Shown one piece after another: positions 2,139 to 19,097 of a DNA stretch of 24,039 nt. The notes under the pieces are model-generated. The model was given only the letters and a program-made list of their open reading frames with translations, searched no databases and was not told the origin of the DNA. The stretch lies in IMG/VR virus record IMGVR_UViG_3300037515_000193, positions 1 to 24,039 of that record; one strand, written 5' to 3'. Origin of the DNA: a virus (Duplodnaviria > Caudoviricetes). Numbering within the stretch: the stretch's first letter is position 1; the number at the start of each line of letters is the position of its first letter. The position numbers were made by a program, and so were the translations under genes.

Positions 2139-2476
2139 TTCGGTTCTCCCTTCACGCGCTCGATGATGTCGCGGGCAGATTCGCGGCGCTGCGATAGCTT
2201 CTTGTGGGCGAGTTGGCCAGAGAAGGCGCATCCATCAAAGGCTCCGTCAGCGTTTCCCTTTGCGATGTACTTGAGCGCTGTCTCAAGCGCTTGCGTGGTC
2301 GCCTCCAGCGCTTCCAGCATGGCCGGAGACTCGGCGATAAGGCGGGCATTGGCCTCGTCGGGCACGTATGCCACATCCGCCCCGTATCCGTCTCGGGCTG
2401 AGATCAGAATGGCCCCTGCCGGAGTCAGCATCGTGCCGTTTGCCTTCCACGGCCCCGGCGTGTGTTGGTTGGTCAC
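2135..2476 (-). CDS. Common phage hypothetical protein (HTPGPW...ANARLIAxxP family)
   Basis: HTPGPW and EANARLIAESPAMLEAL motifs; GTGA overlap start. Confidence 0.8.
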   Translation of the reverse strand: MTNQHTPGPWKANGTMLTPAGAILISARDGYGADVAYVPDEANARLIAESPAMLEALEATTQALETALKYIAKGNADGAFDGCAFSGQLAHKKLSQRRESARDIIERVKGEPK

Positions 2477-2685
2477 TTCCACTCCCTCCCGCACTCGCAC
2501 CCGTGAACGCATTTCCATTCCCTTCCGCATTCACACCGATGAACGCCGTCGTGAGCGTTGTCACGGATGCAGATGTGGACGCATTTAAACGGTCGCTCAA
2601 GGGCGCTTCTGCACTTCTGGTCAAGCGTCTCAGCGGGCGGCGATCTGCGGCTTTTGGTATGCTCTACTTGGATTGCAGAGGTCAT
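2473..2685 (-). CDS. Cys/His-rich small protein with duplicated VHxCECGREWK
   Basis: AAGGAG RBS, ATG at 2685, 70 aa; 36 nt-period repeat whose differences are mostly synonymous. Confidence 0.7.
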   Translation of the reverse strand: MTSAIQVEHTKSRRSPPAETLDQKCRSALERPFKCVHICIRDNAHDGVHRCECGREWKCVHGCECGREWK

Positions 2686-2699
2686 TTCTCTGTCTCCTT

Positions 2700-2970
2700 C
2701 TGCGGCTGGTTTCTCAGCCGCTTTTTCTTGCTTTCCGCGCCGAGGCCCGAAAGTCCTCTCCCCAGCAGCCAGCACCCTTGATATTGGCTGTCGGCGTCTC
2801 AGGCCCCGGCGTAGACGGTGGACCAGGCCAGTTGCGTAGGAGTTCGTAGCACGTCCGATTCGTCCACCTGAGAACCTTCCATGCTCGGGCGGCGCTCAGA
2901 GCGACACCGGACGGCTCGGAGCCCGGTGTCACCCCTTGGGGGGTGCGGCAGTCAGATGCCGCTCTGAACG
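2700..2970 (-). ncRNA. Candidate structured RNA in the early operon
   Basis: Nested complementary segments: 2893-2902/2961-2970, 2903-2910/2923-2930, 2798-2803/2867-2872, 2817-2823/2862-2868, and a hairpin at 2702-2721. The overlapping ORF is unconvincing as a protein. Confidence 0.4.
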
Positions 2971-2975
2971 TCGTC

Positions 2976-3113
2976 TCAGCCATGCCGACACCTCGGACAT
3001 AGGCACTGGTTCTTAGGTTTGTGGGGATCGTGGCCGCACCGACGGCACATCGTCTGCGAGATCGGGTTCGCCATCCCGCACCAGGCGCACGTAGCATCGA
3101 GGGCCAGCGTCAT
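2976..3113 (-). CDS. 45 aa Cys-rich zinc-ribbon microprotein
   Basis: Manual: MTLALDATCAWCGMANPISQTMCRRCGHDPHKPKNQCLCPRCRHG; ATGA overlap. Confidence 0.65.
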   Translation of the reverse strand: MTLALDATCAWCGMANPISQTMCRRCGHDPHKPKNQCLCPRCRHG

Positions 3114-3421
3114 GCCGCGCCCCGCCTTCGTCGCATATACCAACGCGAGTACGCATTTATAACCTCTCGGTTCCTCAGCCTGTACTCACGCATGTACGCA
3201 GCAACCCTCTCTCTGTGCAGTTGTCTGCGCTTGCGTTGGCGTGAGCGGTCACAAATACGGCAGTTGACCGTACCCGTTTCATTGGGCTCGCGGACATGAC
3301 CGAACCTTTGCCGGTGTCGGTTGGGGGGTACTGGTTCGCCATCCCAACAGCGCACGCATAGGCCAGCGTTCTCGACCGCAACGCCGCAACGAGGACAGGG
3401 CGGAGGATCAGGCAGGCTCAT
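3110..3421 (-). CDS. Basic zinc-finger protein
   Basis: ATG at 3421 (ATGA overlap); CPRC, CVRC and CRIC followed by an Arg-rich helix (AYMREYRLRNRE). Confidence 0.65.
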   Translation of the reverse strand: MSLPDPPPCPRCGVAVENAGLCVRCWDGEPVPPNRHRQRFGHVREPNETGTVNCRICDRSRQRKRRQLHRERVAAYMREYRLRNREVINAYSRWYMRRRRGAA

Positions 3422-3654
3422 ATCGCCCCCTTGAGGACGTACTCGATCTGGTACGTCTCGTGATCGTGGATCTGACAGCGGCGCGTTTCGATGACGAACC
3501 CAGACCGCCGTAGCTCGAAAATGCGAGCCCCCGCGCGAGGCATGTAGGCCCGGAGGAAGTCCGTACTGCACACCGGCCCCTGTTGGAGCATCCGCAACAC
3601 GCGCTCGACCTGGGTTAGCTTGGCGCTCAGGGGAAGGGTGAGTTGTTCAGTCAC
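3418..3654 (-). CDS. Winged helix-turn-helix DNA-binding protein (HTH_39-like)
   Basis: TQVERVLRMLQQGPV...PRAGARIFELRRSGFVIET pattern; GGAGG RBS before the GTG. Confidence 0.75.
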   Translation of the reverse strand: MTEQLTLPLSAKLTQVERVLRMLQQGPVCSTDFLRAYMPRAGARIFELRRSGFVIETRRCQIHDHETYQIEYVLKGAI

Positions 3655-3797
3655 ACCCACCTCCACCCGAACACGATCACGACACCCAGGACGATGACGC
3701 CGGCGCAGGCGAACGCGATCAAATAGGGGAATGGGCTAGCGTAGTGCTCTGGCTCCTCGAAAGCGTGGATGAACCGCGAGTCTCGTCTTACCGGCAT
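3651..3797 (-). CDS. 48 aa single-pass membrane protein
   Basis: Manual: MPVRRDSRFIHAFEEPEHYASPFPYLIAFACAGVIVLGVVIVFGWRWV; its stop overlaps the next start. Confidence 0.6.
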   Translation of the reverse strand: MPVRRDSRFIHAFEEPEHYASPFPYLIAFACAGVIVLGVVIVFGWRWV

Positions 3798-3877
3798 AGG
3801 TCACACCCCTTCTTGCAACGGCCTTTGTTCAGTAACTTCACGAAGTCATGGAGTTGGGTAACGGAGTAGTCATTCAC
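3788..3877 (-). CDS. Possible 29 aa microprotein
   Basis: Manual: MNDYSVTQLHDFVKLLNKGRCKKGCDLCR; GTGA overlap with the upstream stop; bridges the gap. Confidence 0.4.
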   Translation of the reverse strand: MNDYSVTQLHDFVKLLNKGRCKKGCDLCR

Positions 3878-4350
3878 GCCGACTTCCCCTTGTCGTTGCG
3901 ATGGTGATGCGGGTGCTCGACCGAATGGCACGGCGGGCAAAGCCAGCGGACATCAAGGGGGTGATCGTAGTTATCGTGGTGTCCCTCAATGCGGGCTCCC
4001 TGGCAACTGCATTTCTCACAAGCGTCAGGCTTTTCGATGTCGCCCGCGCGGACGGCGTTCCCCAGTGCTATCCGCGCAGCGTGCTTGTCTGGATTCGCAA
4101 GCTGATGAACCCGCTGGCGACTAATCCGCATGGACCGCGCGACAGAGGACAGCCCCTCACCGGCCGATAGCCGAGAGCGAATCTCCTTGACGCGCTTCCG
4201 GGAGAGGGGGCCAAACATGCAGCGCTGGCAGCGACCAGTTCGCCCGAAGCACAGCGCCCCACAGTCGCTACAAACACCCAAGCGCTCAAGCACTTTGAGG
4301 GCGGGTGCTTCACGTTGCTCCTTACGTACGCGTACTGTGCTAGGCGTCAC
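3874..4350 (-). CDS. HNH-like endonuclease with zinc ribbon and HTH
   Basis: CSDC/CQRC, an HTH (LSSVARSMRISRQRVHQL), and CEKC...EGHHDNYDHPLDVRWLCPPCH. Likely GTG start at 4350 overlaps the upstream TGA. Confidence 0.75.
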   Translation of the reverse strand: MTPSTVRVRKEQREAPALKVLERLGVCSDCGALCFGRTGRCQRCMFGPLSRKRVKEIRSRLSAGEGLSSVARSMRISRQRVHQLANPDKHAARIALGNAVRAGDIEKPDACEKCSCQGARIEGHHDNYDHPLDVRWLCPPCHSVEHPHHHRNDKGKSA

Positions 4351-4520
4351 CGAGTTCCTTCTCTCTTGTCGCCGCTCTTTCGTGGCCTGTTCCAGTACGG
4401 TGAATTGCACTTTGGGCAGACTCGGATTTCCGCGAGGCTCTCATAGTTTCTTCGCGGAACCCACGTATGGCCGCACCGTCGACACTTCAACTCTGGAACC
4501 TTGACGCCTGTTATTTGCAT
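4347..4520 (-). CDS. 57 aa zinc-ribbon protein, first gene of the early operon (missing from the ORF track)
   Basis: Manual: MQITGVKVPELKCRRCGHTWVPRRNYESLAEIRVCPKCNSPYWNRPRKSGDKREGTR. Confidence 0.8.
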   Translation of the reverse strand: MQITGVKVPELKCRRCGHTWVPRRNYESLAEIRVCPKCNSPYWNRPRKSGDKREGTR

Positions 4521-4530: not shown

Positions 4531-4560
4531 CTATCGGTATCCCTAGTCATTGCGCCTTGT

Positions 4561-4590
4561 AGTTTACGCAGCCCCGCGACTAAGAGTCAA
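4561..4590 (-). promoter_or_regulatory. Sigma70-type early promoter
   Basis: Minus-strand TTGACT (4590-4585), 18 nt spacer, TAAACT (4566-4561). Confidence 0.6.
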
Positions 4591-4591
4591 T

Positions 4592-5437
4592 ATGGTTATG
4601 GTTAACTTGAGCGGGGAAAATCAGAATTCGTTGTGGATAGCCGCTGGTCGCGAGTATCTCCGCTATCTTCGCTCGAAGAACCGTTCCCCCGACACCCTCG
4701 AATCCTACGCCGGAGCCATCAAACGAGCCTCCCACTTGCACTTAACCCGTGACGCTATCGAGGGATATTTCGACTCCCTATGGCAGACATCGAAGCCCGC
4801 GACGGTCCTTCACCACCACAAGAACCTCCGGGCGTTTCTCAACTGGTGCGTGCGCGCCGGATACCTGGCGGCTAACCCCATGAACGGCATCCCGGAACCC
4901 CGCGTCAGGCCGAACATCGTCGAGCCCTACACCCCGGAGCAGGCCCGCGCTCTGTACGCTGCGGCCGCGTCCTTGCGGGACCGCGTCCTCGTGGCGGTCC
5001 TGCTGAACACGGGTATTCGGATCGGCGAAATGCGTTCACTCAAACCCGCCGATGTCCACTCCGGGCGACTGCTGATCCACGGGAAGGGTTCGCGTCAACG
5101 CTGGGTTGGCATTGAGCCACGTACGGAGACACTCCTCAAGTCGCACATATCCATGAGCCCAGCGGAGACTGTGTTCGGCGTCGAACGGCGAACCCTGTAC
5201 TGGGCGATCCGGCGCATGGGAGATCGTGCCGGCGTCCCGAAGGCGCACCCCCACAGATTCCGTGACACGTTCGCCGTCAGGTTCCTTGAGAACGGAGGGA
5301 ATATCGATGATCTACAGGTGATCTTGGGCCACTCAAACATCAGCATGACGCTCCGCTACATCCAGTGGGGACGGGCAGAGCGAGCGATCCAGGGGCAAAT
5401 GCAATATGCGCCCAGCGTGTATAATCGCGCCCAATGA
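4592..5437 (+). CDS. Tyrosine recombinase/integrase (XerC/D-like)
   Basis: SAM-like N-domain and a full catalytic set: TGIRIGE (R), HGKG (K), HRFR (HxxR), LGH, TLRY (Y). Start uncertain (4550, 4592 or 4598). Confidence 0.93.
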   Translation: MVMVNLSGENQNSLWIAAGREYLRYLRSKNRSPDTLESYAGAIKRASHLHLTRDAIEGYFDSLWQTSKPATVLHHHKNLRAFLNWCVRAGYLAANPMNGIPEPRVRPNIVEPYTPEQARALYAAAASLRDRVLVAVLLNTGIRIGEMRSLKPADVHSGRLLIHGKGSRQRWVGIEPRTETLLKSHISMSPAETVFGVERRTLYWAIRRMGDRAGVPKAHPHRFRDTFAVRFLENGGNIDDLQVILGHSNISMTLRYIQWGRAERAIQGQMQYAPSVYNRAQ

Positions 5438-5451
5438 AAGGACGGTACGAA

Positions 5452-6267
5452 ATGAGTACTCTAATGAAGATCGGCGAGTGGTTGGTGCTACTCCCGATAT
5501 GGCGAGTGATTTTTCAGGAACGTAGGTGGCAAAAGTGGGCAGCGATCGGAACCGGCGCAGCGTGGATTCTCATAATTGTGATTGCTTCCGCTGTGTCAGG
5601 TGGCAGCGAAGACTCACAGAGCGATGCCGTTGCCAACGTCACCGCGTCACCGACTGAGAATGCAACTGGCGAGCCGACCGACTTACCAGAGCCCTCAGCG
5701 GCACCCACAGAAGCCCCTACCGCCGAGCCGACAGCGGAGCCAACCCCTGAGCCCACGCCCGTTCAAATCCAGGGGTCAGGGCCAACGGCTACTGATCCGA
5801 TCACCCCGCCCGCTCCTGTCTCAATCGTCACGATGACGCACAGCGGCGAGTCCAACTTTATCGTTCACGTATTCCGCGCCGACTCAGAGGACTTGCTGGT
5901 AAACAAGATCGGAGCATACACCGGAAGCCGGCCGCTCTTTGGAGGAGAGCCGGTAGTCTTCGATGTGGATGCAGACGGCGCGTGGACGATAACGCTAGAG
6001 GCTCCGGCGACGACTACCGATCCGGCGTTCTCCGGAGAGGGAGACTCCGCCAGCGGTCTACTCATTGAGGAGATAGAGGGCGGTTCGTGGGAAATAGCGC
6101 ACACCGGCGAACGCAACTTCATCGTCCGCCTCCACTGCGCCAGCGGGACAGAATTGATTGCCAACGAAATCGGGCCCGTGGCCGGGAGTACAGTTGTAAA
6201 CTTTGGCGAACCCCCTTGCCTCTGGGAAGTAGAGGCGGACGGGAGTTGGAGCCTTGTCCCGCGCTAA
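5452..6267 (+). CDS. Membrane-anchored exported protein with Pro/Thr linker and two repeated beta domains (moron or superinfection-exclusion candidate)
   Basis: N-terminal hydrophobic segments, a PTAEPT linker and two copies of H(S/T)GExNFIV...LxxNxIG...VxADGxW. AAGGA upstream of ATG 5452. Confidence 0.75.
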   Translation: MSTLMKIGEWLVLLPIWRVIFQERRWQKWAAIGTGAAWILIIVIASAVSGGSEDSQSDAVANVTASPTENATGEPTDLPEPSAAPTEAPTAEPTAEPTPEPTPVQIQGSGPTATDPITPPAPVSIVTMTHSGESNFIVHVFRADSEDLLVNKIGAYTGSRPLFGGEPVVFDVDADGAWTITLEAPATTTDPAFSGEGDSASGLLIEEIEGGSWEIAHTGERNFIVRLHCASGTELIANEIGPVAGSTVVNFGEPPCLWEVEADGSWSLVPR

Positions 6268-6488
6268 GGAGCGTCGGCTGGCCCTGTAACAGCACGCCAC
6301 CACGTAGCAAGGAACGGCGTCACCAGTCCGGCGAAGGCGCACCAGGCGAGGACCCACAGGGGGATCGGTAGGTTCACTTCGCCGCCAGAGGTATCGACAG
6401 CCACGGGCAGCAGCGCGATCGTCCCCAGAAGCGTTCCCGTCGCCGTGATGATCCGGTGTCCGCGGGCGCTCAGCTTCGTCCAGTTCAT
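6264..6488 (-). CDS. Putative holin (2 TM)
   Basis: 74 aa with two hydrophobic helices, downstream of the endolysin; GGAG RBS. Confidence 0.65.
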   Translation of the reverse strand: MNWTKLSARGHRIITATGTLLGTIALLPVAVDTSGGEVNLPIPLWVLAWCAFAGLVTPFLATWWRAVTGPADAP

Positions 6489-10465: not shown

Positions 10466-11086
10466 TTATGCGGCCCTCACGAAAATCGCCGCTTGGCCCT
10501 GCCGGTCGAGTGAATCTGGCGTTCCCCAGGGGTCTGGTAGCGCGCCAAACGAGAAGGATCGATATACTGCAACGGAGTAACCAGGATCTGTTGACCCAGG
10601 TACGAACGGCCCCGTAAAGCCAATCCCAGATCGTAGATCGATAGTAGCGTTTGCGGAGCTGAATACTCCCGCCAGCCAATAGAGGGCAGGGCCTGCTAGT
10701 TCTTCGGAAATAGTTTGGAGGTTGAGAGCGCCGCCCCCCGTGATTGCAAAGGTTCCTGTGTCTACAATTAGCGCACCAGGTGCACCGCCATCGTCGTCGT
10801 ATATACCCAACCGAACATTGCAACCCGCACCTGCACTGTCGCAGGCAATCCCGATTCGGTCATAAGTACTCGTGGCCGGAATAGGAAAGGGCTGCGCCTG
10901 TAGAATATCGGCTTCGGACGCGCTGGCGGCGATAGTCTTAGCAATGGGCGCATAGTAGTAACCTGATTTATGCTCAGGGATTAACGCTGCTCTACTCAGC
11001 ACGTTCAGGTTGTCCCGCGTTTCGTTTAGATGTGCTGCGGCCAATACCGCTCCCGCCACGTACGTCCTCGGCACGACCCAACTAAT
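10466..11086 (-). CDS. Minor tail protein with probable ATT start
   Basis: SWVVPRTYVAGAVLAAAHLNETRDNL is a typical minor-tail N-terminus; AAGGAG lies 8 nt before an in-frame ATT. Confidence 0.75.
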   Translation of the reverse strand: MSWVVPRTYVAGAVLAAAHLNETRDNLNVLSRAALIPEHKSGYYYAPIAKTIAASASEADILQAQPFPIPATSTYDRIGIACDSAGAGCNVRLGIYDDDGGAPGALIVDTGTFAITGGGALNLQTISEELAGPALYWLAGVFSSANATIDLRSGIGFTGPFVPGSTDPGYSVAVYRSFSFGALPDPWGTPDSLDRQGQAAIFVRAA

Positions 11087-11114
11087 GACACACACTCCTT
11101 GCACGTGATAAACT
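11085..11114 (+). promoter_or_regulatory. Promoter of the inverted HNH gene (probably leaderless)
   Basis: ATGACA (11085-11090), 18 nt spacer, TGa-TAAACT (11106-11114). The GTG start begins 7 nt later with no SD. Confidence 0.55.
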
Positions 11115-11120
11115 GGTGAC

Positions 11121-11909
11121 GTGCTCACCGATAAAGAACGTCGTCGCCGTAACGCCGAGAAAGCCATGAGGGCGTATCACAAGCGTTCGGCGGAGATCGC
11201 CGCAATGCCAAAGATCGCTTGCGGGTGCGGATGCGAAACGATGATCGCTCCGCTCCGTATTCAAGATCGCAAACCTGCCCGCTTTGCCCCCGGCCACTCG
11301 CTGGGTGGCCGTGGCGTTGAAACGCGCTTTAAGAAGGGCCAGACGCCGCACAATAAAGGAAAGCCAGGACCACCCAACCCCCGTAAGGGAACGCGCGTCG
11401 CTAAGGAAATCATCGACAAGACCATCGCCGCCCGGCGTGCGAAAAATAGAGGCGCTTACTGGAAGCCCGGTCGCACGCTCACTGACGTGCGAGACCCCGA
11501 CAAATGGCTTGATGCCGTAACGAAGGCCAACCGCAGCCGCGATATCACTGGACCGAACAATCCGTTCTTCGGAAAAACTCATACTGCTGAGACGCGCGAA
11601 CGGATATCTAACGCCCTGACCGGAGAGCGCAATCCCAATTGGGCGGGTGGGGCTTCGACGCTCCCATACGGCCCCGCATTTACAAAGAAGTTCAAGCGCT
11701 TGATACGTCAGCGCGACGGGAACCGCTGCCAGCGCTGCGGCAAAACGCGAGAGAAGCACCATCGCGCCCTTGAAGTGCATCACATTGACCATGACAAGGC
11801 GAACAATGACCCGGCTAATCTGATAACGGTCTGTGGCTCCTGCAACGTGTGGTTGAGCTATCATCGCGACGTGGCTCTGTGGGAATTTCCGAAGCGACGC
11901 TTGCTGTAG
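11121..11909 (+). CDS. HNH homing endonuclease with NUMOD3-like repeats, inverted relative to the operon
   Basis: CGCGC, RFKKGQTPHNKGK, NPFFGKTHTAETRERIS, IRQRDGNRCQRCG and VHHIDHDKANNDPANLITVCGSC. Confidence 0.92.
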   Translation: MLTDKERRRRNAEKAMRAYHKRSAEIAAMPKIACGCGCETMIAPLRIQDRKPARFAPGHSLGGRGVETRFKKGQTPHNKGKPGPPNPRKGTRVAKEIIDKTIAARRAKNRGAYWKPGRTLTDVRDPDKWLDAVTKANRSRDITGPNNPFFGKTHTAETRERISNALTGERNPNWAGGASTLPYGPAFTKKFKRLIRQRDGNRCQRCGKTREKHHRALEVHHIDHDKANNDPANLITVCGSCNVWLSYHRDVALWEFPKRRLL

Positions 11910-11911
11910 CA

Positions 11912-12349
11912 TCAGTTATCCTCCAAGTGCTTCGCGTTCTCCGCCCGCAGGTCGGCCAGCGTTTCGTGAGTGAACCAGTTTCTACGTTGCGGTACGGGCC
12001 GCTCTTTCAGCACTTCCTCGATCCGCTCCCTGTCCTTCGGGAACGTCACTTCCAGCGGCCCCATCCGGCAGTTCCGGCAGACAAACACCGGCCAGTCAGG
12101 GTCGGCGAACTCCGCGTTCCGGCAGTCCTTACGCGGGCAGTCCACGATCCAGGCACCCTCGTACACTCTCGCCTCGACCTTCCCGATCGGCGTCCAGTCC
12201 GTGATGAGCCCGTGCCCCGCCTTGAGCAACGCCTTGTTGACGTACCGCTGATTCAGTTCGTTGAGGTACTCCAAATCCAGTTCGGGCGCGGTACGCTTCT
12301 TGAAGCCGAGCTTCAACCGCTGTTGTCGGGTATCAAGCAACGAAGGCAA
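11912..12349 (-). CDS. Tail-region protein with zinc ribbon
   Basis: GGAGG RBS plus TTG; WIVDCP..C and FVCRNC; C-terminal RNW...ETLADLRAEN. Confidence 0.7.
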   Translation of the reverse strand: MPSLLDTRQQRLKLGFKKRTAPELDLEYLNELNQRYVNKALLKAGHGLITDWTPIGKVEARVYEGAWIVDCPRKDCRNAEFADPDWPVFVCRNCRMGPLEVTFPKDRERIEEVLKERPVPQRRNWFTHETLADLRAENAKHLEDN

Positions 12350-13805
12350 GGACGTCCTCCCCGTCTAGCACTGACTCGTCAAGGATGAAGAACTGGTCAG
12401 CCGTGAACGTGCTCAACAGCCATTTCGTCTCGTGCGCGTGTGATACGGGGTCGAGCGTGTGCGTAACCCCCTCGATGAAAAAGTCCTCGTCAACCTGCGA
12501 CGAGTACGCAAACGAATCGTCTGTGATCGTCACCCGATCGTTGATCTCCCTTGCAAGCATCTGGGTTAGCTGCGCGTCGGAATCGTCCGAATGCGGGAAC
12601 AGCGTCAGCCCCAACCGTGGGTGAGGTTCGGAGAAGTGGGACGCGATATAGTCCGCCCATCCCTGCAACTCAACGAGGTTCCCCAGCCCCAACAGCCGGT
12701 AGGACTGCTCATACGTCTTGTCGAAGGGCGCGATGCTGGACGTCGCCTGAGCCGAGACGGTCCGCAAGGAAGTAGGTTGCAGCAGCAACTTTCCGAGCAC
12801 CACCGTCTTCTGGAACCAGACGCCGTTCGGCGAATTGTTGGTGATGCTCCACGAAGCCCCGTGTCCGTAGTTTGTGAAGCTCGACGCCATGTCGGAACTC
12901 AGGTCTGTCCCTGACCCGTCCCGCTGAACGTTCGCCGTGAAGTGTGTCCCTGCAACGGGCGTCACCACATCTTGCGCAGGGCCTACATAGTTGGGGTCGA
13001 TCTTCCACGTCTCCCCTTTCGCTAAGAAGAAGGGGAGCGGCTGATATGTGAAAATCATGGATTCGCCGTCAGGAACCTCATATCCCCCTGCTTGAAGGAT
13101 CACGTCCGTGTACAACTGATCTTCGGCGTACATGTACTCGATCCCCTGCATTCGGGTGATCGTGCCGTCAGACTCCGCCAATGCTCTGGCGTTGCGATCC
13201 CGGAAGGTGAACACTCCGCCCGCAGATATGAAGATGATCCCGCCGAGGTCGTGGTCGGCGCACTCCTGTAGCGCTGAAAGCGCGTCCGTGGTCCGCCAGT
13301 AGGGACGGGGAAGAACCATTTGACCAGTGTCCAGATCTGCTGCGGCGGAGAACGTCGCGTCGAACAGGTCAAGGATGGCGTCGATCCGGTCTCCCGTCAG
13401 TTTGTCGGACGCTACCGCGAGGTTCAGGTGGAAGTTGCGGAGGAAGTAGAACTCGTCAACGCACTGGATCGTCACCCTTCGGTTGATGACGTCGGGGGTG
13501 AAGGAAACGATGTACCCCGTGAACAGCGGGTACGGGGTTGCGGAGAGCGTGGCCTTGATCTGGACCTTGGAGTAGAGATCGAGGTTGCCGAAGTACGCCC
13601 CGGAGTCGTAGACCGGGTTGAAACGCCCGTCCGCGTTGTTCAGGACGATGGTGCAGTGCCCAACCTCCACGGACGATAGCTCCCGAGACCGCCCCCGCCG
13701 GATCGTCACCTGTAGCGCGTAGGAGATAACGTCCGTTTCCGGCGTTCCGTCGTCGTTTAGATCGATAAGGGCCGCGTAATCGGCGGCTGAGGATGCGGTA
13801 CTCAT
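12333..13805 (-). CDS. Minor tail / baseplate hub-like protein
   Basis: Follows the tape measure gene (ATGA overlap); VTIRRGRSREL...GHCTIVLNNADGRFNP and LFTGYI motifs. Confidence 0.8.
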   Translation of the reverse strand: MSTASSAADYAALIDLNDDGTPETDVISYALQVTIRRGRSRELSSVEVGHCTIVLNNADGRFNPVYDSGAYFGNLDLYSKVQIKATLSATPYPLFTGYIVSFTPDVINRRVTIQCVDEFYFLRNFHLNLAVASDKLTGDRIDAILDLFDATFSAAADLDTGQMVLPRPYWRTTDALSALQECADHDLGGIIFISAGGVFTFRDRNARALAESDGTITRMQGIEYMYAEDQLYTDVILQAGGYEVPDGESMIFTYQPLPFFLAKGETWKIDPNYVGPAQDVVTPVAGTHFTANVQRDGSGTDLSSDMASSFTNYGHGASWSITNNSPNGVWFQKTVVLGKLLLQPTSLRTVSAQATSSIAPFDKTYEQSYRLLGLGNLVELQGWADYIASHFSEPHPRLGLTLFPHSDDSDAQLTQMLAREINDRVTITDDSFAYSSQVDEDFFIEGVTHTLDPVSHAHETKWLLSTFTADQFFILDESVLDGEDVLAFVA

Positions 13806-16201
13806 GCGCCTGCCAAACTCCACCTGCCCCGAAGCACTTGGTCGAGCAAGGTGGCCAACCGTTCCACCTCCAACGGCGATGCCGTCGAGAGCGTGGGCGC
13901 ATAGGTGAGGTTAACCGTTACCGCGCCGTCCATGCCGCCGCCCTTGTGGGTGGGCAGTACCGTTTCGCCGCCGTGAGCACGGATGATCTGGGTAGAACCG
14001 ATCGGCCCCGGCACAACCCCGCCAGCATCGAAGCCAGGGAGGCTGATTCCAGGCAACCCGCCAACACCGGGGATCAGGTTGAGCGGGTTCGGAATGTCGA
14101 CTGAGAGCATTCCGTTGATGAACCCCTGGATCAAATCCTTCCCCTTCTGGAAGAGAACCCCTGCCGTACTCCCAATCAGGGATGCAATGCGGTTCGGAAC
14201 CCCAACGAGCCAGCTCGCGATTTCACCCCACCTCTCGTTGATCCCATTCCAGAACCCCGAGAGGAGAGACCGCCCCTTCTGCTTAAGGGTTACCGTTACA
14301 TCCCCGAGCGCGTTACGGGCGAGTTCGGGGAATCCAGCAAGAGCACCTGCGATCTCGCCCCATCGTTCGATGATCCCGTTCCACATGCCAGAGAGAAGTT
14401 CGCGGCCCTTCGGCGCCAGCGTCGTAAGCACGTCCCCGATTGTCTCGAAGATCAGCAATGGGAACCCGATGAAATACATGTAAACGGCGTCGTCCCAGTG
14501 CTCCTTGAAGCCCTCCCAAATGGCATCCAATAGCTCGATGCCCTTCTCTTTCATCGTCGGCAGGAAGTCCACGAACATTTGCACCATCTCGTCAAGGAAG
14601 CCGATCTGTAGGAAGTCCAGGAACAGGTTTAGCGTCGCTTCGGCCAGCTCCTTAAACTCCGTCCATGCGAGCGACCAGTCCCCTGACGCCAACGCGGAGA
14701 TCAATTCGACGACGTTCTCGACGACGGTGATGATCGAGTCGATCAGGTCGATCAAGTCCTGCACGTTATCGGCAACCATCCGGAACGCGCCCGCCGCGAT
14801 GTCCGCCCAGACGCCCGCCGACTCAAACCGGGCCTTGATCTCATCCCAGTTGTCCCGGATAAGCCCGATGGCCGTAATGAGACCCACGATCGCGGCCAAC
14901 GCAATCGCTCCCGGCCCGAACGCCACGACGATTGCAACGCCGATGGCAATGATAGCGGCGATCATCAGCGGCTTGTTGTCCTTGAGGAACTCCCAGAAAT
15001 CCTCAATAAGCGGCATGATCGTTTTGAAGCCGCTAATGAACGAGTTGACCAGCACCGTCAGCGCGGGCTTCATGTCCTCGAACGCTTGCCGCGCCGACTC
15101 TATCGCCTTCGGAAGGTTCTCCTGCAACCACGGGACTACGACTTCCAGCGCCTTCGTTACGTGGGGCAGCGCTTCCAGCCCTAGCTCCATGAGGAATATC
15201 TTGGCCTCGTTGATGGCCTTGTTGAATTTGAAGCTGAACGTCTCCTGGATCTTCGCCGCCGCCGCGTCCGTGGCCCCGGCGGAATTGCTCATCTCATCCA
15301 TTGCAGAGGACACCGCATCGAAGTTGGGGCCAGTCACGCCCAGCACCGCGTTCATAGCTTCGACGCTCCCAAACAGGTCTTTGAAGTCCTGTTCCGGCAT
15401 CGACTGGCGCAGCGTTTCGAACACCTGCGGCATCGTCTGGCCATCTTTAATGAGGTCTGCAAAGCCCTTCCCGGAAAGGTCACGGAGCGCTGTGTCCAGT
15501 TTCGATCCGGACTTCTGCGCCTCGACCATCGCCGCCCGGATTTGGGTTGTCGCAACGGACGTCGGTGTGCCCGATGCGGTAATGACGGCGAGTTGGGAAG
15601 CCACGTCGCCGAAGCTAACCCCCAGCGAGGAAGCGGTCGGGATGACGTTAAACAGCGAGGATGAGAGTTGGGTGAAGTCCGTCTTCCCCAGACGAACAGC
15701 AGTGAACATCTGGTCGCTCGCCTCTTGCGCGGAGATCACCTCGTCCCCGTAGGCGTTGACCACGGACGTAATGCCGTCGACAGCAGTCTCTAGGTCCGTG
15801 ACGCCGCCGATAGACGCCTTTGCCGCCGTCTCCATGAAGGACACGATGTTGTCCGAAGGAACCCCCGCAGAGATCGCCTGGTAGAGTGCCGGGATGCTCT
15901 GGTTAGTGGCGATGCCGAACTCCTTGGAGACGCCAATGATGTCATCCTGGAGCTTCCCGAACGCCTTTTCCGACAGATCGGGCAGAAGCGTTTTGACTTC
16001 GGCAAACGACGACTCAAAGTCCGCCGCCATCTTGATCGACGCGATGCCCAGCCCAGCGATTGCCGTCGCTCCGCCGAGCGCTCCCGCCCTGACGACGTTG
16101 CCCAGCGCGCCGCCCAGCCCCTTCGCCTTCCCCTCAATAGAGCCGAGAACAGACGACGCCTGATCGTCTGCGCGGACGCGGATAACTAATTCATTGGCCA
16201 T
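13802..16201 (-). CDS. Tail tape measure protein (TP901-like core)
   Basis: 799 aa, helical and Ala/Gly-rich; AADFESSFAEVKT, ALYQAISAG and AVRLGKT; C-terminal FDAGGVVPG...AHGGETVLP. Confidence 0.93.
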   Translation of the reverse strand: MANELVIRVRADDQASSVLGSIEGKAKGLGGALGNVVRAGALGGATAIAGLGIASIKMAADFESSFAEVKTLLPDLSEKAFGKLQDDIIGVSKEFGIATNQSIPALYQAISAGVPSDNIVSFMETAAKASIGGVTDLETAVDGITSVVNAYGDEVISAQEASDQMFTAVRLGKTDFTQLSSSLFNVIPTASSLGVSFGDVASQLAVITASGTPTSVATTQIRAAMVEAQKSGSKLDTALRDLSGKGFADLIKDGQTMPQVFETLRQSMPEQDFKDLFGSVEAMNAVLGVTGPNFDAVSSAMDEMSNSAGATDAAAAKIQETFSFKFNKAINEAKIFLMELGLEALPHVTKALEVVVPWLQENLPKAIESARQAFEDMKPALTVLVNSFISGFKTIMPLIEDFWEFLKDNKPLMIAAIIAIGVAIVVAFGPGAIALAAIVGLITAIGLIRDNWDEIKARFESAGVWADIAAGAFRMVADNVQDLIDLIDSIITVVENVVELISALASGDWSLAWTEFKELAEATLNLFLDFLQIGFLDEMVQMFVDFLPTMKEKGIELLDAIWEGFKEHWDDAVYMYFIGFPLLIFETIGDVLTTLAPKGRELLSGMWNGIIERWGEIAGALAGFPELARNALGDVTVTLKQKGRSLLSGFWNGINERWGEIASWLVGVPNRIASLIGSTAGVLFQKGKDLIQGFINGMLSVDIPNPLNLIPGVGGLPGISLPGFDAGGVVPGPIGSTQIIRAHGGETVLPTHKGGGMDGAVTVNLTYAPTLSTASPLEVERLATLLDQVLRGRWSLAGA

Positions 16202-16204
16202 TTA

Positions 16205-16227
16205 TGGTACACTCCAAAGAAAGGAGG
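16205..16227 (+). promoter_or_regulatory. Extended -10 and SD for the second inverted HNH gene
   Basis: TGg-TACACT (16205-16213) then AAAGGAGG (16220-16227); no clear -35. Confidence 0.5.
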
Positions 16228-16237
16228 GGCGGAGCCA

Positions 16238-16723
16238 ATGCTTATAGCCTGTATTCAGTGCGGACGAAACCGAGAAATCTCTCACGCTCATGCAACAAAC
16301 GTCACTCGCGCTCAGAGACACCCATGCGCTAAATGCCGGAGCGAGTCTCAGCGAAAACCTGAAAGGGTAACGTGTCCAGAGTGCAAGGGGCCGAAGCCTA
16401 ATCGCCGTGCTAAGCGGTGCCGTGCGTGCCGTCTGCAACAGGTAAAGGACGCTGGCCCGCGCAACGTGCCCATTGGAACAGAAAGTTCGGACAAAGATGG
16501 CCGCGTAATTGTGAAGGTCGCACACCGCCGATGGGTCAGGCGCGCTCGCCTTGTTTGGGAGCGCGCACATGGTTCTATTCCTGACTGGCCTCGTGCCGTG
16601 ATTCATCACATCAACGGTGACCCAAGTGATGATCGCCTTGAGAACTTGGCGTGCGTTACCATCGGAGACCATGTACGCATTCACAATCCAGGGAAGGGTC
16701 CTCGGCGGAAGGGATTGCGGTAG
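16238..16723 (+). CDS. HNH endonuclease (HNH_3-like) with zinc ribbons, inverted relative to the operon
   Basis: Four CxxC pairs and RLVWERAHGSIP...IHHINGDPSDDRLENL. Confidence 0.9.
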   Translation: MLIACIQCGRNREISHAHATNVTRAQRHPCAKCRSESQRKPERVTCPECKGPKPNRRAKRCRACRLQQVKDAGPRNVPIGTESSDKDGRVIVKVAHRRWVRRARLVWERAHGSIPDWPRAVIHHINGDPSDDRLENLACVTIGDHVRIHNPGKGPRRKGLR

Positions 16724-16724
16724 G

Positions 16725-16889
16725 CTAGCCATCGACCACCGCTCGCTGTTCAAGCATCAGGCTCATCTCGTCGTCAGGCGATACGGCATCCTCACTCTGT
16801 TCGAGCATGGCGATGCCGCGCACCAGCCACGCCGGTTCGGTCAGCACGGCCGACGGCGGAATGTGCCAGCGTTGGGCCAGAGCGTCCAC
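16725..16889 (-). CDS. Tail assembly chaperone, frameshift extension (gpT-like part)
   Basis: Manual: VDALAQRWHIPPSAVLTEPAWLVRGIAMLEQ...VVDG*; it is in the -1 frame of the upstream chaperone and open from the slippery site. Confidence 0.8.
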   Translation of the reverse strand: MDALAQRWHIPPSAVLTEPAWLVRGIAMLEQSEDAVSPDDEMSLMLEQRAVVDG

Positions 16890-17248
16890 TATTCGGAGGC
16901 CGTCTCCGCTAAAGGGTGCGTATCAGCCATAGCGCGGCTCCACGCGCCCATCAGATCGACAACGAAATTGACAGGTAGGGACATCAGCCCGTCGAAGTCA
17001 GCGGGGACGGGCTCGCCGTTACGGTCCTTGATGTTCCACTCGATCAGGAACTTCGCAAACTCCTGCATAAGAGCGCGGACATCTTCGACGTTGCGGTCAT
17101 CGTCCTTGTTCAGTTCCTCGAACCGAAGCGCCGTACCGAATGGGGCATCAAGAGACGCCCGGATAATCAGGCCATCGTGCTTCCCCTCGAACTGGAGAAT
17201 CGCGATGGTCTCCGGGATCTGATACCCGGTTCCGTTCTTCTTGCTCAT
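16889..17248 (-). CDS. Tail assembly chaperone (gpG-like)
   Basis: Lies between the tail tube and tape measure genes; LIEWNIKDRNGEPVP motif; GGGAGAAGGA RBS before ATG 17248. Confidence 0.85.
   Translation of the reverse strand: MSKKNGTGYQIPETIAILQFEGKHDGLIIRASLDAPFGTALRFEELNKDDDRNVEDVRALMQEFAKFLIEWNIKDRNGEPVPADFDGLMSLPVNFVVDLMGAWSRAMADTHPLAETASE
16910..16916 (-). other. Programmed -1 ribosomal frameshift site C CCT TTA
   Basis: XXXYYYZ heptamer in the correct phase, a few codons before the chaperone stop. Confidence 0.8.
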
Positions 17249-17339: not shown

Positions 17340-17759
17340 TTACGCCCAGGCCGGAACCACGCCGCTCGACAGGTTGGCGGTTGTGGAGCCCGTGAGAGAG
17401 CCGTCAGCCGCGCGGGTGAACGGGAAGTCTCCCAGTAGGCAGTCCATAGCCAGCGTCAGGCTGTCGTGCGTGAACGTGTGCGTCCGGCCGACGTCCGAAC
17501 CGTTGAGGGTGCGGTACGCCTTGAGGACGGTGACGATGCCTGTTGTCGCCGCACTGTTCCAGACGTAGCTGTAGTTGAACGATCCGTCCGCCAGCAGCAG
17601 CAGCCGTTCATGGGCGCTGACATCGAGCCCAGTCGTGTCCTGCTGGCCGCTTGGGGTGTTCAGTGTTACGGTCGTCACGTCGTTCTTCACGGCTCGCTGC
17701 GTGCCGCCGGCGTCGTCAATGCTGAACGTGGTGACGCCCAGTCCGGAGATTTTCGCCAT
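17340..17759 (-). CDS. Major tail (tube) protein
   Basis: MAKISGLG start, 139 aa and beta-rich, directly upstream of the chaperone. Confidence 0.8.
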   Translation of the reverse strand: MAKISGLGVTTFSIDDAGGTQRAVKNDVTTVTLNTPSGQQDTTGLDVSAHERLLLLADGSFNYSYVWNSAATTGIVTVLKAYRTLNGSDVGRTHTFTHDSLTLAMDCLLGDFPFTRAADGSLTGSTTANLSSGVVPAWA

Positions 17760-17871: not shown

Positions 17872-18324
17872 TTAGGCTTCGTTCATTTCCTTGAGTCGCG
17901 TTCTTGCCTCTATGAGCGCGTCACCGCCGACCTGATAGCGCTCCTGGTATTCGTCGTGCGTTGTCCGGCGCTTGCGGCCGGCGGGAGTCGTCCCGGCGAA
18001 ATAGATCGCCTCGTCGTCCTCCCACTGCAGCCGGTGTCCGGTGCATTGACCGGGGAAGAAGTCGATTCGGATCGCACCCTCAACCAGCGCCGCTTCTTTG
18101 TGCTGGCCCGCCTTGCCTTCTCTGATGTAGCGATAGAGATTCGCGTCCTTCTCGTCGCTCAGATCAAGAGTGATGCTGTAACCCTTCTCCCAGCGCTCGC
18201 AGCCATCCTTCGGGCACGGCTTACTGCCCTGTCGTTTCGCCGCCGTGATCGCCTGCATCCCTTCGGCCTGACCGTGACCCTGCCCGGAGAGCTGTTGGCC
18301 AGAGCGATAAAAGTTAGTCCTCAT
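17872..18324 (-). CDS. Hypothetical tail-region protein
   Basis: 150 aa ORF with an ATGA overlap; FFPGQC motif. Confidence 0.65.
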   Translation of the reverse strand: MRTNFYRSGQQLSGQGHGQAEGMQAITAAKRQGSKPCPKDGCERWEKGYSITLDLSDEKDANLYRYIREGKAGQHKEAALVEGAIRIDFFPGQCTGHRLQWEDDEAIYFAGTTPAGRKRRTTHDEYQERYQVGGDALIEARTRLKEMNEA

Positions 18325-19097
18325 GCCGTCGCCCCTTCGTTTCGGTTGGCCGAGTAGTAGCGGACAATCATTACCGCGAAGTCAACGCTCGTGTAACCAG
18401 CCGATGTTGTGAGGTCGAGCGTCAGGTATTGCTCGATCGTCTGCGTCAGCGATGTCTCGATGCGCTCCGTCACTGGCGCCGTTGTGATCTGCGTGAACGC
18501 CCCACCGGTGATGTTGCCGTAGGCGTCGGACCCGCCGTTGTCGTCCGACTCCTGAATGGTGATCGTTACGTCATCGCCGTCGAAGTCGGTTACGTGGAGA
18601 TAGGCCGCGAGCCCGAAGCTGGTAGCCGTCGCCGCTACGTCATCCCCAAAGTCCACCCCGGTTAGCGTCTCGATACCGGTTGACTGGACAACGCCCGCTG
18701 TCATTTGCAGCCCGTACTCAAGTCCGTAGCCGTTCGCCATGAACTGCACCGGCATGAGGATGTCGCCGTCGGCGGATCGGTTCTGCCCGAACGCAACCTT
18801 GTGTGCGACCAACGACACGCCGACATTCCCCTGAGCCGTGCCCCGGAAGTACGTCACCAGCGCGTCCGTGAGGCTGGCTTTTAGAACGGGGTGCGCTCCC
18901 CCAGAGTCGGAGTTCCAGTACGCATCACAGGCGATCTCACCGTCAGCGAGTCCGTAGGCACGCTCGTGGGCGCTCTTGTCGATACCGGTGCGTATTAGGT
19001 GCGCCGACGGCCAGCCGAGCCGGGTAACGGCCTTGATGTCGTTGGACAGGTTGTTTCCGTTGACGTATAAGTTGTCACCGAGCCCGCTACTCTTCAT
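18321..19097 (-). CDS. Tail-tube paralogue with C-terminal beta domain
   Basis: N-terminal half aligns by eye with 17340..17759 (SGLG, TGxDxSAHER, LADG, WNS, VLKA, RxADG). Confidence 0.75.
   Translation of the reverse strand: MKSSGLGDNLYVNGNNLSNDIKAVTRLGWPSAHLIRTGIDKSAHERAYGLADGEIACDAYWNSDSGGAHPVLKASLTDALVTYFRGTAQGNVGVSLVAHKVAFGQNRSADGDILMPVQFMANGYGLEYGLQMTAGVVQSTGIETLTGVDFGDDVAATATSFGLAAYLHVTDFDGDDVTITIQESDDNGGSDAYGNITGGAFTQITTAPVTERIETSLTQTIEQYLTLDLTTSAGYTSVDFAVMIVRYYSANRNEGATA

Follow-up and report, generated by a model that had tools for sequence, protein, structure and literature searches.

Inverted HNH endonuclease genes at coupled tail-gene junctions of a phage and their stop-free antisense frames

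The DNA analyzed here is a stretch of 24,039 nucleotides (nt), the complete virus record IMGVR_UViG_3300037515_000193 (Caudoviricetes), called the window below. Two HNH endonuclease genes, HNH1 (11121-11909, plus strand) and HNH2 (16238-16723, plus strand), are inserted in inverted orientation into its minus-strand structural operon, each at the junction of two genes, and in both of them the opposite strand can be read without a stop in the frame that is in register with the nuclease codons. Comparison with other HNH loci supports the view that inverted, and not co-oriented, HNH genes are selected for such a stop-free in-register antisense frame, also at low G+C content. The trait is real and under selection in a part of the inverted free-standing HNH genes, and it is convergent between different families and different insertion sites. 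Translation of this frame, termed a bridge, probably maintains the coupling of the flanking genes and blocks polarity, so that the inserts would do little harm without splicing.

Two occupied junctions and their empty counterparts

At junction 1, the upstream gene (11912-12340, minus strand) encodes a Cys-rich protein of the virion operon (family alignment A3) that is 81% identical to its homologue in L049, a relative sharing 80-87% identical DNA with the window. The TGA of this gene overlaps the minus-strand ATG at 11912-11910 (TGATG), which lies 0 nt from the stop codon of HNH1 and opens bridge frame 1 (11082-11912, minus strand), comprising 276 stop-free codons in register with HNH1. The frame ends in a TAG, the first base of which is the last T of an ATT triplet (ATTAG, 11086-11082). 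This ATT (11086-11084), the putative replacement start, occupies the Met-1 position in the alignment of the MAW/MSW family and is placed 8 nt behind a GGAG motif (11098-11095), the two forming a new initiation region (11082-11098, minus strand). The downstream gene (10466-11086, minus strand; alignment A5) encodes a MAWTxPRT-type protein of the tail or fibre region, a function assigned from its position. Its G+C content at third codon positions (GC3) is 0.53, compared to about 0.78 for the operon, and it is only 46% identical to the L049 gene, which suggests that it was recently exchanged beside the nuclease.

At junction 2, the upstream partner (16725-17248, minus strand) consists of a tail-assembly-chaperone-like gene (17248-16889) and a −1 frame extension that leads to a TAG at 16727-16725. 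A slippery CCCTTTA (16916-16910, minus strand), kept in L049, lies at the end of the chaperone gene and is a likely site of a G/GT −1 frameshift, the G/GT arrangement being a familiar one ahead of the tape measure gene. Three tape measure codons, ATG GCT AGC (16724-16732, minus strand), are retained next to it, with the same 9 nt present at the tape measure start of L049. Their ATG (16732-16730) overlaps the upstream TAG by 8 nt, is located 6 nt from the stop codon of HNH2, and opens bridge frame 2 (16202-16732, minus strand), which comprises 176 stop-free codons in register with HNH2 and ends in a TAA directly before a new ATG (TAAATG, 16204-16199). This replacement start, ATG GCC, begins the tape measure protein gene (13802-16201, minus strand), and a second minus-strand GGAG is found at 16215-16212. 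The spacing between stop and start codons is −1 and −5 in cassette 1, and −8 and 0 in cassette 2; the part of the inserts that is not HNH gene amounts to only 34-36 nt.

The first-pass annotation had described two dissimilar HNH genes as the sole plus-strand genes of the structural operon, in agreement with their different Pfam families and with our gene caller, which finds no other. It had also recorded the position of each HNH stop next to an ATG that overlaps the end of the upstream gene, the length and register of the two open frames, their termination in contact with a new start, and the presence in both cassettes of a minus-strand GGAG and a plus-strand extended −10 element; each of these can be read from the sequence.

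In L049 both junctions are free of HNH genes and coupled, with a TGATG stop/start leading into MAWTAPRT at junction 1 and ATG GCT AGC overlapping the upstream TAG by 8 nt at junction 2. Since the window retains exactly these starts, upstream of each insert, each antisense ATG is an ancestral start left behind, and the new Shine-Dalgarno (SD) sequence and start codon were supplied by the inserts. The earlier prediction of what the empty junctions should look like was correct in form, both being empty and coupled, and wrong in its letters, as L049 reads TGATGGCTTGG and GATGGCTAGCAAC. The proposed insertion at the start codon of a coupled junction also agrees with the distinct empty type-1 junctions, in 26 of 27 of which the gap is between −4 and +4, and all 50 empty MAWT-type starts that could be located are ATG or GTG (two further empty MAWT-type hits, without a nearby start, are outside the 50).

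Taken by itself, the window is merely suggestive. Given the protein and the codon usage of the window, the chance that the frame is open is 0.091 for bridge 1 and 0.252 for bridge 2; the in-register antisense frame is fully open in four of the 21 other window genes as well (113-159 codons), and one other gene has an antisense open run of 373 codons. The statistical weight comes from the relatives.

Stop avoidance in inverted and co-oriented HNH genes

The survey included 267 HNH open reading frames (ORFs) of 90-450 codons, grouped at 60% identity into 209 clusters, of which 29 are inverted with respect to both sides, 110 are co-oriented, and 70, mixed or undetermined, were excluded from the contrast. 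L048 (a shadow ORF), three L211 duplicates, and two loci of unpublished genomes had been removed beforehand, and L056 and L057, identical over the HNH gene, were counted once. The first 20 codons were skipped, and the expected number of stops was fitted on the co-oriented genes.

In-register antisense stops are absent from 10 of the 29 inverted clusters (0.93 expected) and from one of the 110 co-oriented ones (1.44 expected). Without the window, the inverted count is 8/27 (0.85 expected), and when the HNH1 family is removed as well, 5/20 inverted clusters remain open versus 1/108 co-oriented (Fisher p 3e-4). A held-out test under the same rules, based on a later scan (65 loci, 55 usable ORFs, 36 new clusters), gave 4/6 inverted (0.22 expected) versus 0/17 co-oriented clusters (p 0.0017). 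The comparison of antisense openness between the two orientations, which the first-pass annotation had singled out, thus separates them in both sets. Low-G+C genes without any stop include L064 (GC3 0.22; 5.8 expected), L045 (5.4), L211 (8.3), and L060 (9.2). The other two antisense frames show no stop depletion. Leucine is encoded by TTA or CTA in 3 of 79 cases in low-G+C bridged genes versus 69 of 137 in unbridged ones, groups that were chosen on the outcome, and the use of A-ending Thr, Val, Ala, and Pro codons is alike in both.

These data bear on the simplest alternative, that the frames are shadow ORFs, opened in G+C-rich DNA by codon bias, with the ATG as a mere leftover. The window probabilities and its ordinary genes with open antisense frames would be in keeping with that explanation, as would the many inverted HNH genes that are not open, and a leftover ATG needs no selection. 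It does not account for frames fully open at GC3 0.22-0.41 despite five to nine expected stops, nor for the dependence of openness on orientation (12/33 inverted versus 1/127 co-oriented clusters when the survey and the held-out set are combined without the window), the undepleted state of the other two antisense frames, or the position of the terminal stops described below. The shadow-ORF explanation is largely refuted by the survey and the held-out set, and we regard it as highly improbable.

Ends of the open frames and unusual start codons

The ends were analyzed in 19 inverted genes that contain a long open run and had been checked by hand. In 14 of the 19, the distance from the terminal stop to the next start is −8 to +2 nt (shuffle null sum 1.47; 12/17 without the window), a range that was set after inspection of the data and a sample in which the HNH1-family cases share ancestry. 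The five remaining ends are found at +16, +56, +71, +73, and −13, and none of seven unbridged genes has an in-register stop at −8 to +2. On the 5′ side, 8 of the 19 frames start between −8 and +1 from the upstream stop. In L056 and L059 the frame is reached via a short coupled ORF, in a two-step relay, and in L342, L191, and L045 it starts in a duplicated copy of the N terminus of the target gene (26 codons in L342). In L342, where the inverted HNH gene is located at 2613-3314 (minus strand; G053:C98), the bridge begins in the old copy and reaches the new copy with an ATGA at its end. A clear coupled 5′ start is not seen in L065, L211, L052, and L061. The frame offset from the bridge to the next gene varies (0, +1, or +2).

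The replacement starts themselves are unusual. Met-1 is replaced by ATT or ATC in 7 of 13 long-open MAWT-type cases, versus none of the 50 empty sites and none of seven unbridged sites. No canonical in-frame start is present upstream of the ATT or ATC in L060, L070, and L039, and in the window a GTG overlapping the SD sequence is located three codons upstream of the ATT. Both in the window and in L060, the presence of ATT instead of ATG creates the TAG of the bridge. ATT might also protect the site from self-cleavage; ATG is kept at many occupied sites. Since initiation factor 3 disfavours non-canonical codons in de novo initiation (PMC2268962), a reasonable inference is that the ATT and ATC starts depend on re-initiation.

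Alternatively, the open frame might do no more than shield the RNA from Rho or decay, with the downstream gene starting on its own SD sequence and coupling being irrelevant. Several open frames indeed stop 16-95 nt short of the following start (L211, L052, L061, L156, L374, L402), an SD-like motif is found at every new start, and the hosts have Rho. Cover alone would leave unexplained the 14 stops that adjoin a start, the restriction of weak ATT and ATC starts to sites behind open frames, and the fact that in the window and L060 an ATG would delete the bridge stop, whereas ATT provides both start and stop. On this evidence, RNA cover without coupling is unlikely.

Absence of a conserved antisense product

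The bridge frames have no match in Pfam or PHROG, no homologue of bridge 1 was found among 8000 scored candidates, and the AlphaFold model of the bridge 1 peptide has a predicted local distance difference test score (pLDDT) of 39.7, being predicted as unfolded. The antisense peptides are 19-30% identical to one another. At third positions of conserved four-fold codons in bridged pairs, identity is 0.267 versus 0.248 expected (1717 columns). The trait that is conserved is the lack of TTA, CTA, and TCA codons and not the peptide.

A real protein encoded by the antisense frame, such as one that inhibits the nuclease of the same element, would fit the proper start and stop of frames of 176-390 codons and the fact that their peptides can be aligned. 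The extent of that identity follows from the sense protein, though, with third positions near saturation; beside the negative searches and the low pLDDT, the lengths and termini of the frames vary and the relays change frame. A functional antisense protein is accordingly very unlikely.

Distribution of bridged and unbridged genes

HNH1 has 76 homologues, at 33-63% identity, and the loci of this family are mostly inverted and placed ahead of a MAWT-type gene. The number of in-register antisense stops is bimodal across the family: none in L053, L056, L060, L064, and L211, and few in L052, L059, L065, L070, and L061. Open members, which are 34-54% identical, occur in many parts of the tree, whereas the low-G+C unbridged members form one clade. 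Two sister pairs, L060/L062 and L059/L058, are split into an open and an unbridged gene; the deep branches of the tree are weakly supported. The unbridged genes were found not to use another antisense frame, and uncoupled empty sites do not explain the unbridged clade, as those sites are coupled.

Several observations, in addition to the retrospective range and shared ancestry mentioned above, weigh against the reading of the open frames as translated bridges. An open run of at least 85% is lacking in 17 of the 29 inverted HNH clusters, and segD of phage T4 has nine in-register antisense stops in 223 codons. Within the HNH1 family, stops are at normal or excess numbers in L051, L054, L055, L058, L062, L071, L072, and L085; the low-G+C unbridged clade (L051, L054, L055, L071, L072, and L085), as well as L062, occupies the same junction with coupled empty sites, and L058 keeps the TGATG with a broken frame. 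None of the four held-out open frames, one of which is L397, ends directly within −8 to +2: their gaps are −35, +95 followed by a relay to −10, and +55/+43 followed by −8, and one frame breaks 314 nt short. Every new start has its own SD-like motif, so de novo initiation is possible. Finally, a home-made gene caller supplied the orientations and some of the starts; Pfam finds no HNH in L191, and the L318 start is a prediction made independently of homology.

The held-out frames make exact stop/start adjacency common, not the rule; the exact endpoints, which the first-pass annotation had taken as the real signal, are borne out by the hand-checked genes and not by the held-out ones. Given the inverted genes without a long open run, the unbridged clade at the same junction, and segD, the bridge is one solution and not a requirement. 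The broader suggestion of a class of splicing-free bridged elements therefore holds for stop avoidance in inverted HNH genes and does not hold as a universal feature.

Proposed mechanism

Two properties of bacterial translation are relevant to a bridge: coupling requires short gaps and fails at about 20 nt (PMC10666635), and untranslated RNA causes polarity and invites Rho (PMC12360218). Rho is present in the three Chloroflexota genomes with open elements (G001, G037, and G053). Each insert follows the start codon of a tail gene directly and is reversed, and the old start, still overlapping the stop of the previous gene, opens a stop-free frame across the back strand of the nuclease. Late in infection, ribosomes that have completed the upstream gene would start anew at the leftover ATG in any case, translate the throw-away frame, terminate, and re-initiate at the replacement start with the help of the new SD sequence, a mode of initiation that may tolerate AUU and AUC. 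In this way the downstream tail gene would stay coupled, and ribosomes on the late mRNA would protect it from Rho polarity; with an early stop in the bridge, 500-800 nt would go untranslated and the next gene would lose its coupling. The in-register frame would be the cheapest one to keep open, with only the choice of Leu and Ser codons affected, and selection could then position the bridge stop at the replacement start. The spacer of 35-50 nt would contain a separate promoter for the nuclease, which would spread by cutting empty alleles (homing). The probable upstream partner at junction 2 is the chaperone product made by frameshifting, and there the bridge might in addition maintain the stoichiometry of the tape measure protein.

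Antisense translation might instead serve mainly to silence the nuclease, by protecting late transcription through the HNH gene and its promoter during DNA packaging. The location of the predicted HNH promoter within the last codons of the bridge, overlapping the new SD sequence, would suit such a role, and tight regulation of phage endonuclease genes has been described (PMC2988022). Silencing offers no explanation of the stop/start adjacency or of the ATT and ATC starts, and we give it hardly any credence as the main function.

Removal of the insert at the RNA level (an intron), or its skipping by bypass or frameshift to give a fused product, is brought to mind by the position of the insert exactly behind a start codon and by the endonuclease-linked bypass of T4 (10.1101/2022.08.31.505936). 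The frame offset takes all three values and splicing would need no open frame, making such a route extremely improbable. A group I or II intron was rejected as a candidate, no Rfam ribozyme match being present in the window and only the 34-36 nt being available outside the HNH genes, and so was an intein, as each bridge runs into a stop codon and has no Pfam match.

Bridge translation, if it operates as described, would mean that purifying selection acts on a frame for being translated and not for its product, that coupled initiation at AUU and AUC occurs naturally, and that long antisense ORFs, usually dismissed as shadows, have one origin here. The T4 literature has raised the question of how free-standing homing endonucleases can enter tightly coupled late operons without splicing. 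The bridge would be a concrete answer, as well as a naturally occurring blueprint for inverted cassettes without polarity. As a joint proposition, the chances of which we place a little short of even, reversed insertion with a stop-free back strand and ribosomes handed to a replacement (often weak AUU or AUC) start may form a third route, beside introns and inteins, to a harmless selfish endonuclease. An essential tail gene would then depend on translation of a junk strand, and dual-strand HNH genes, also reversed in inteins and large proteins (L341 and L379), would be a widespread convergent class from which antisense overlapping ORFs can arise. No published description of an inverted HNH gene with an antisense bridge was found in a search that left the subscription literature mostly outside.

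Comparison with known systems

The free-standing homing endonucleases of the T4 type are similar in that HNH genes stand outside introns and between essential genes; T4 mobE is coupled to nrdA via a UAAUGA overlap, and segD is inverted between capsid genes 23 and 24 (PMC2988022). The T4 genes differ in being co-oriented, except for segD, which is flanked by gaps of 50 and 90 nt, whereas the HNH genes of the window are inverted and their back strand is the coupled frame. A solution like that of mobE is found in L073 (380-889, plus strand), an HNH1-family gene co-oriented at the HNH1 junction, which uses the host start directly and is followed by a new SD sequence and ATG.

The ShiLan domain, a hidden out-of-frame HNH in actinophage methylases, resembles the bridged genes as a splicing-free mobile HNH with a stop-free second frame that is predicted to be disordered; it is described as lying on the same strand, inside a gene, with the junk frame joining the host protein (PMC11855218). 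The HNH genes of the window, in contrast, are antisense and placed at a gene junction, and their junk frame terminates by itself, at a stop to which a replacement start is coupled. The MobA element with the gene 60 bypass is likewise an HNH element that brings along a special mode of translation and a substitute copy of host sequence, but it splits a coding region and is passed by a 50-nt ribosome hop; the accessible part of that account does not mention an antisense frame or stop avoidance (10.1101/2022.08.31.505936).

Both ends of the bridges resemble sites of termination-reinitiation coupling (PMC10666635), the bridges having overlaps of −1, −4, −5, or −8 or gaps up to +2. The difference is that the upstream partner is a non-conserved frame of the back strand and that the restart codon is often ATT or ATC.

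Morons of lambdoid late operons are extra genes with their own promoter. The HNH genes of the window are likewise extra genes inside a late operon, with candidate promoter motifs that recur in the family and a window scan that was not above chance; they differ from morons in that no terminator was found after either of them, the cargo is a nuclease, and the insertion duplicates a start.

The HNH genes and their expression signals

HNH1 encodes a protein of 262 amino acids (aa) with NUMOD3 (Pfam E 5e-12), a DNA-binding module of the homing-endonuclease type, and HNH (E 1e-7). HNH2 (161 aa) has a Cys-rich N terminus, for which no family match was found, followed by HNH_3 (E 5e-13). The two are unrelated except for the nuclease motif, and in carrying that motif and being present or absent at their cognate sites they correspond to free-standing HNH genes. 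In alignment A2, residues H220, H221, and D223 are invariant and N233 and N242 nearly so, pointing to an intact His/Asn motif. The AlphaFold model of HNH1 has a pLDDT of 85.7, with HNH nucleases as the best, weak fold matches (E about 0.01); the profile of alignment A2 gave DotN as its sole match, a weak one, and HNH2 has no match among PDB sequences. Scans of viral sequences with the single HNH1 protein returned distant HNH genes only, and searches of cultured phages gave no close relative of HNH1 or of the hub protein.

The predicted HNH1 promoter (11085-11114, plus strand) consists of ATGACA (−35), 18 nt, and the extended −10 element TG-A-TAAACT. A scan of the window found one promoter site compared to 2.5 in shuffled sequences, which is not above chance; the geometry recurs in the HNH1 family, where the spacer usually contains TTGACA and TRTAAT or TAACAT, 6-7 nt before the HNH start, and the −35 element adjoins the SD sequence of the opposite strand. 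HNH1, whose start codon is 6 nt past the −10 element, is probably leaderless. Each cassette contains one plus-strand TGnTAnnnT (11106-11114 and 16205-16213). In cassette 2 the signals of both strands overlap at 16205-16215, where the extended −10 element TG-G-TACACT (plus strand, 16205-16213) shares bases with the tape measure GGAG; this element was not reported by the sigma-70 scan, which requires a −35. HNH2 has its own SD sequence, AGGAGG (16222-16227, plus strand). The window scan revealed no plus-strand terminator-like site after either gene, and a promoter-motif scan yielded two loci and no useful element.

Other loci with reversed HNH genes

L159 carries three inverted HNH genes (930-1445, 3617-4438, and 5939-6469), one fully open (0 versus 5.4 expected stops) and two not. 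A gene of a different family (HNH_3) is inverted at the junction-1 site in L358 (3073-3474, plus strand), with a TAGTG-coupled open frame, and another inverted HNH_3 gene, in L374 (2803-3330, plus strand), has an open 5′-coupled frame; the neighbours of the latter are podovirus-like, and we take it to belong to a different phage group. A second small plus-strand HNH-like gene is found beside the first in two members of the unbridged clade (L051, 1119-1472, and L067, 292-651).

In L341, a helix-turn-helix-HNH gene (2692-3390, plus strand) is reversed within an intein-like segment in the Walker A region of an ATPase gene (2393-3727, minus strand; G053:C230). The Pfam match to Intein_splicing has an E of 4e-7, which is below the cut-off; the intein frame has no stops over 232 codons and is an antisense frame other than that of the bridges. 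In L379, a phage ORF that spans at least 1566 codons contains an HNH_3 gene (2656-3210, plus strand), reversed and in register, with the host frame reading through.

The structural operon and its surroundings

The minus-strand operon comprises capsid, adaptor, tail tube, chaperone, tape measure, hub, and fibre-region genes, as well as an amidase gene. Gene calls and orientation are those of our own gene caller, which reproduced the operon of the window; on the plus strand between 6681 and 24039 it called HNH1 alone, HNH2 having scored too low. Homologues of the junction-1 upstream gene occur in 5 of 401 Chloroflexota genomes, and a relative of HNH1 was found in one Aggregatilineaceae genome; Chloroflexota as the host of the phage would be a guess.

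Beyond the structural operon, the plus strand carries at 4550-6267 an integrase gene and a second gene, for a membrane-anchored Pro/Thr-rich protein, convergent to the lysis genes; in L049 the second position beside the integrase is taken by a different gene. The integrase is adjoined by a third endonuclease-like gene (3874-4410, minus strand; PHROG 2340), which has one in-register antisense stop. Within the operon, two tail-tube-like genes (17340-17759 and 18321-19097, minus strand) weakly resemble each other, with 35% identity over 100 aa between one of the window genes and the L049 copy of the other.

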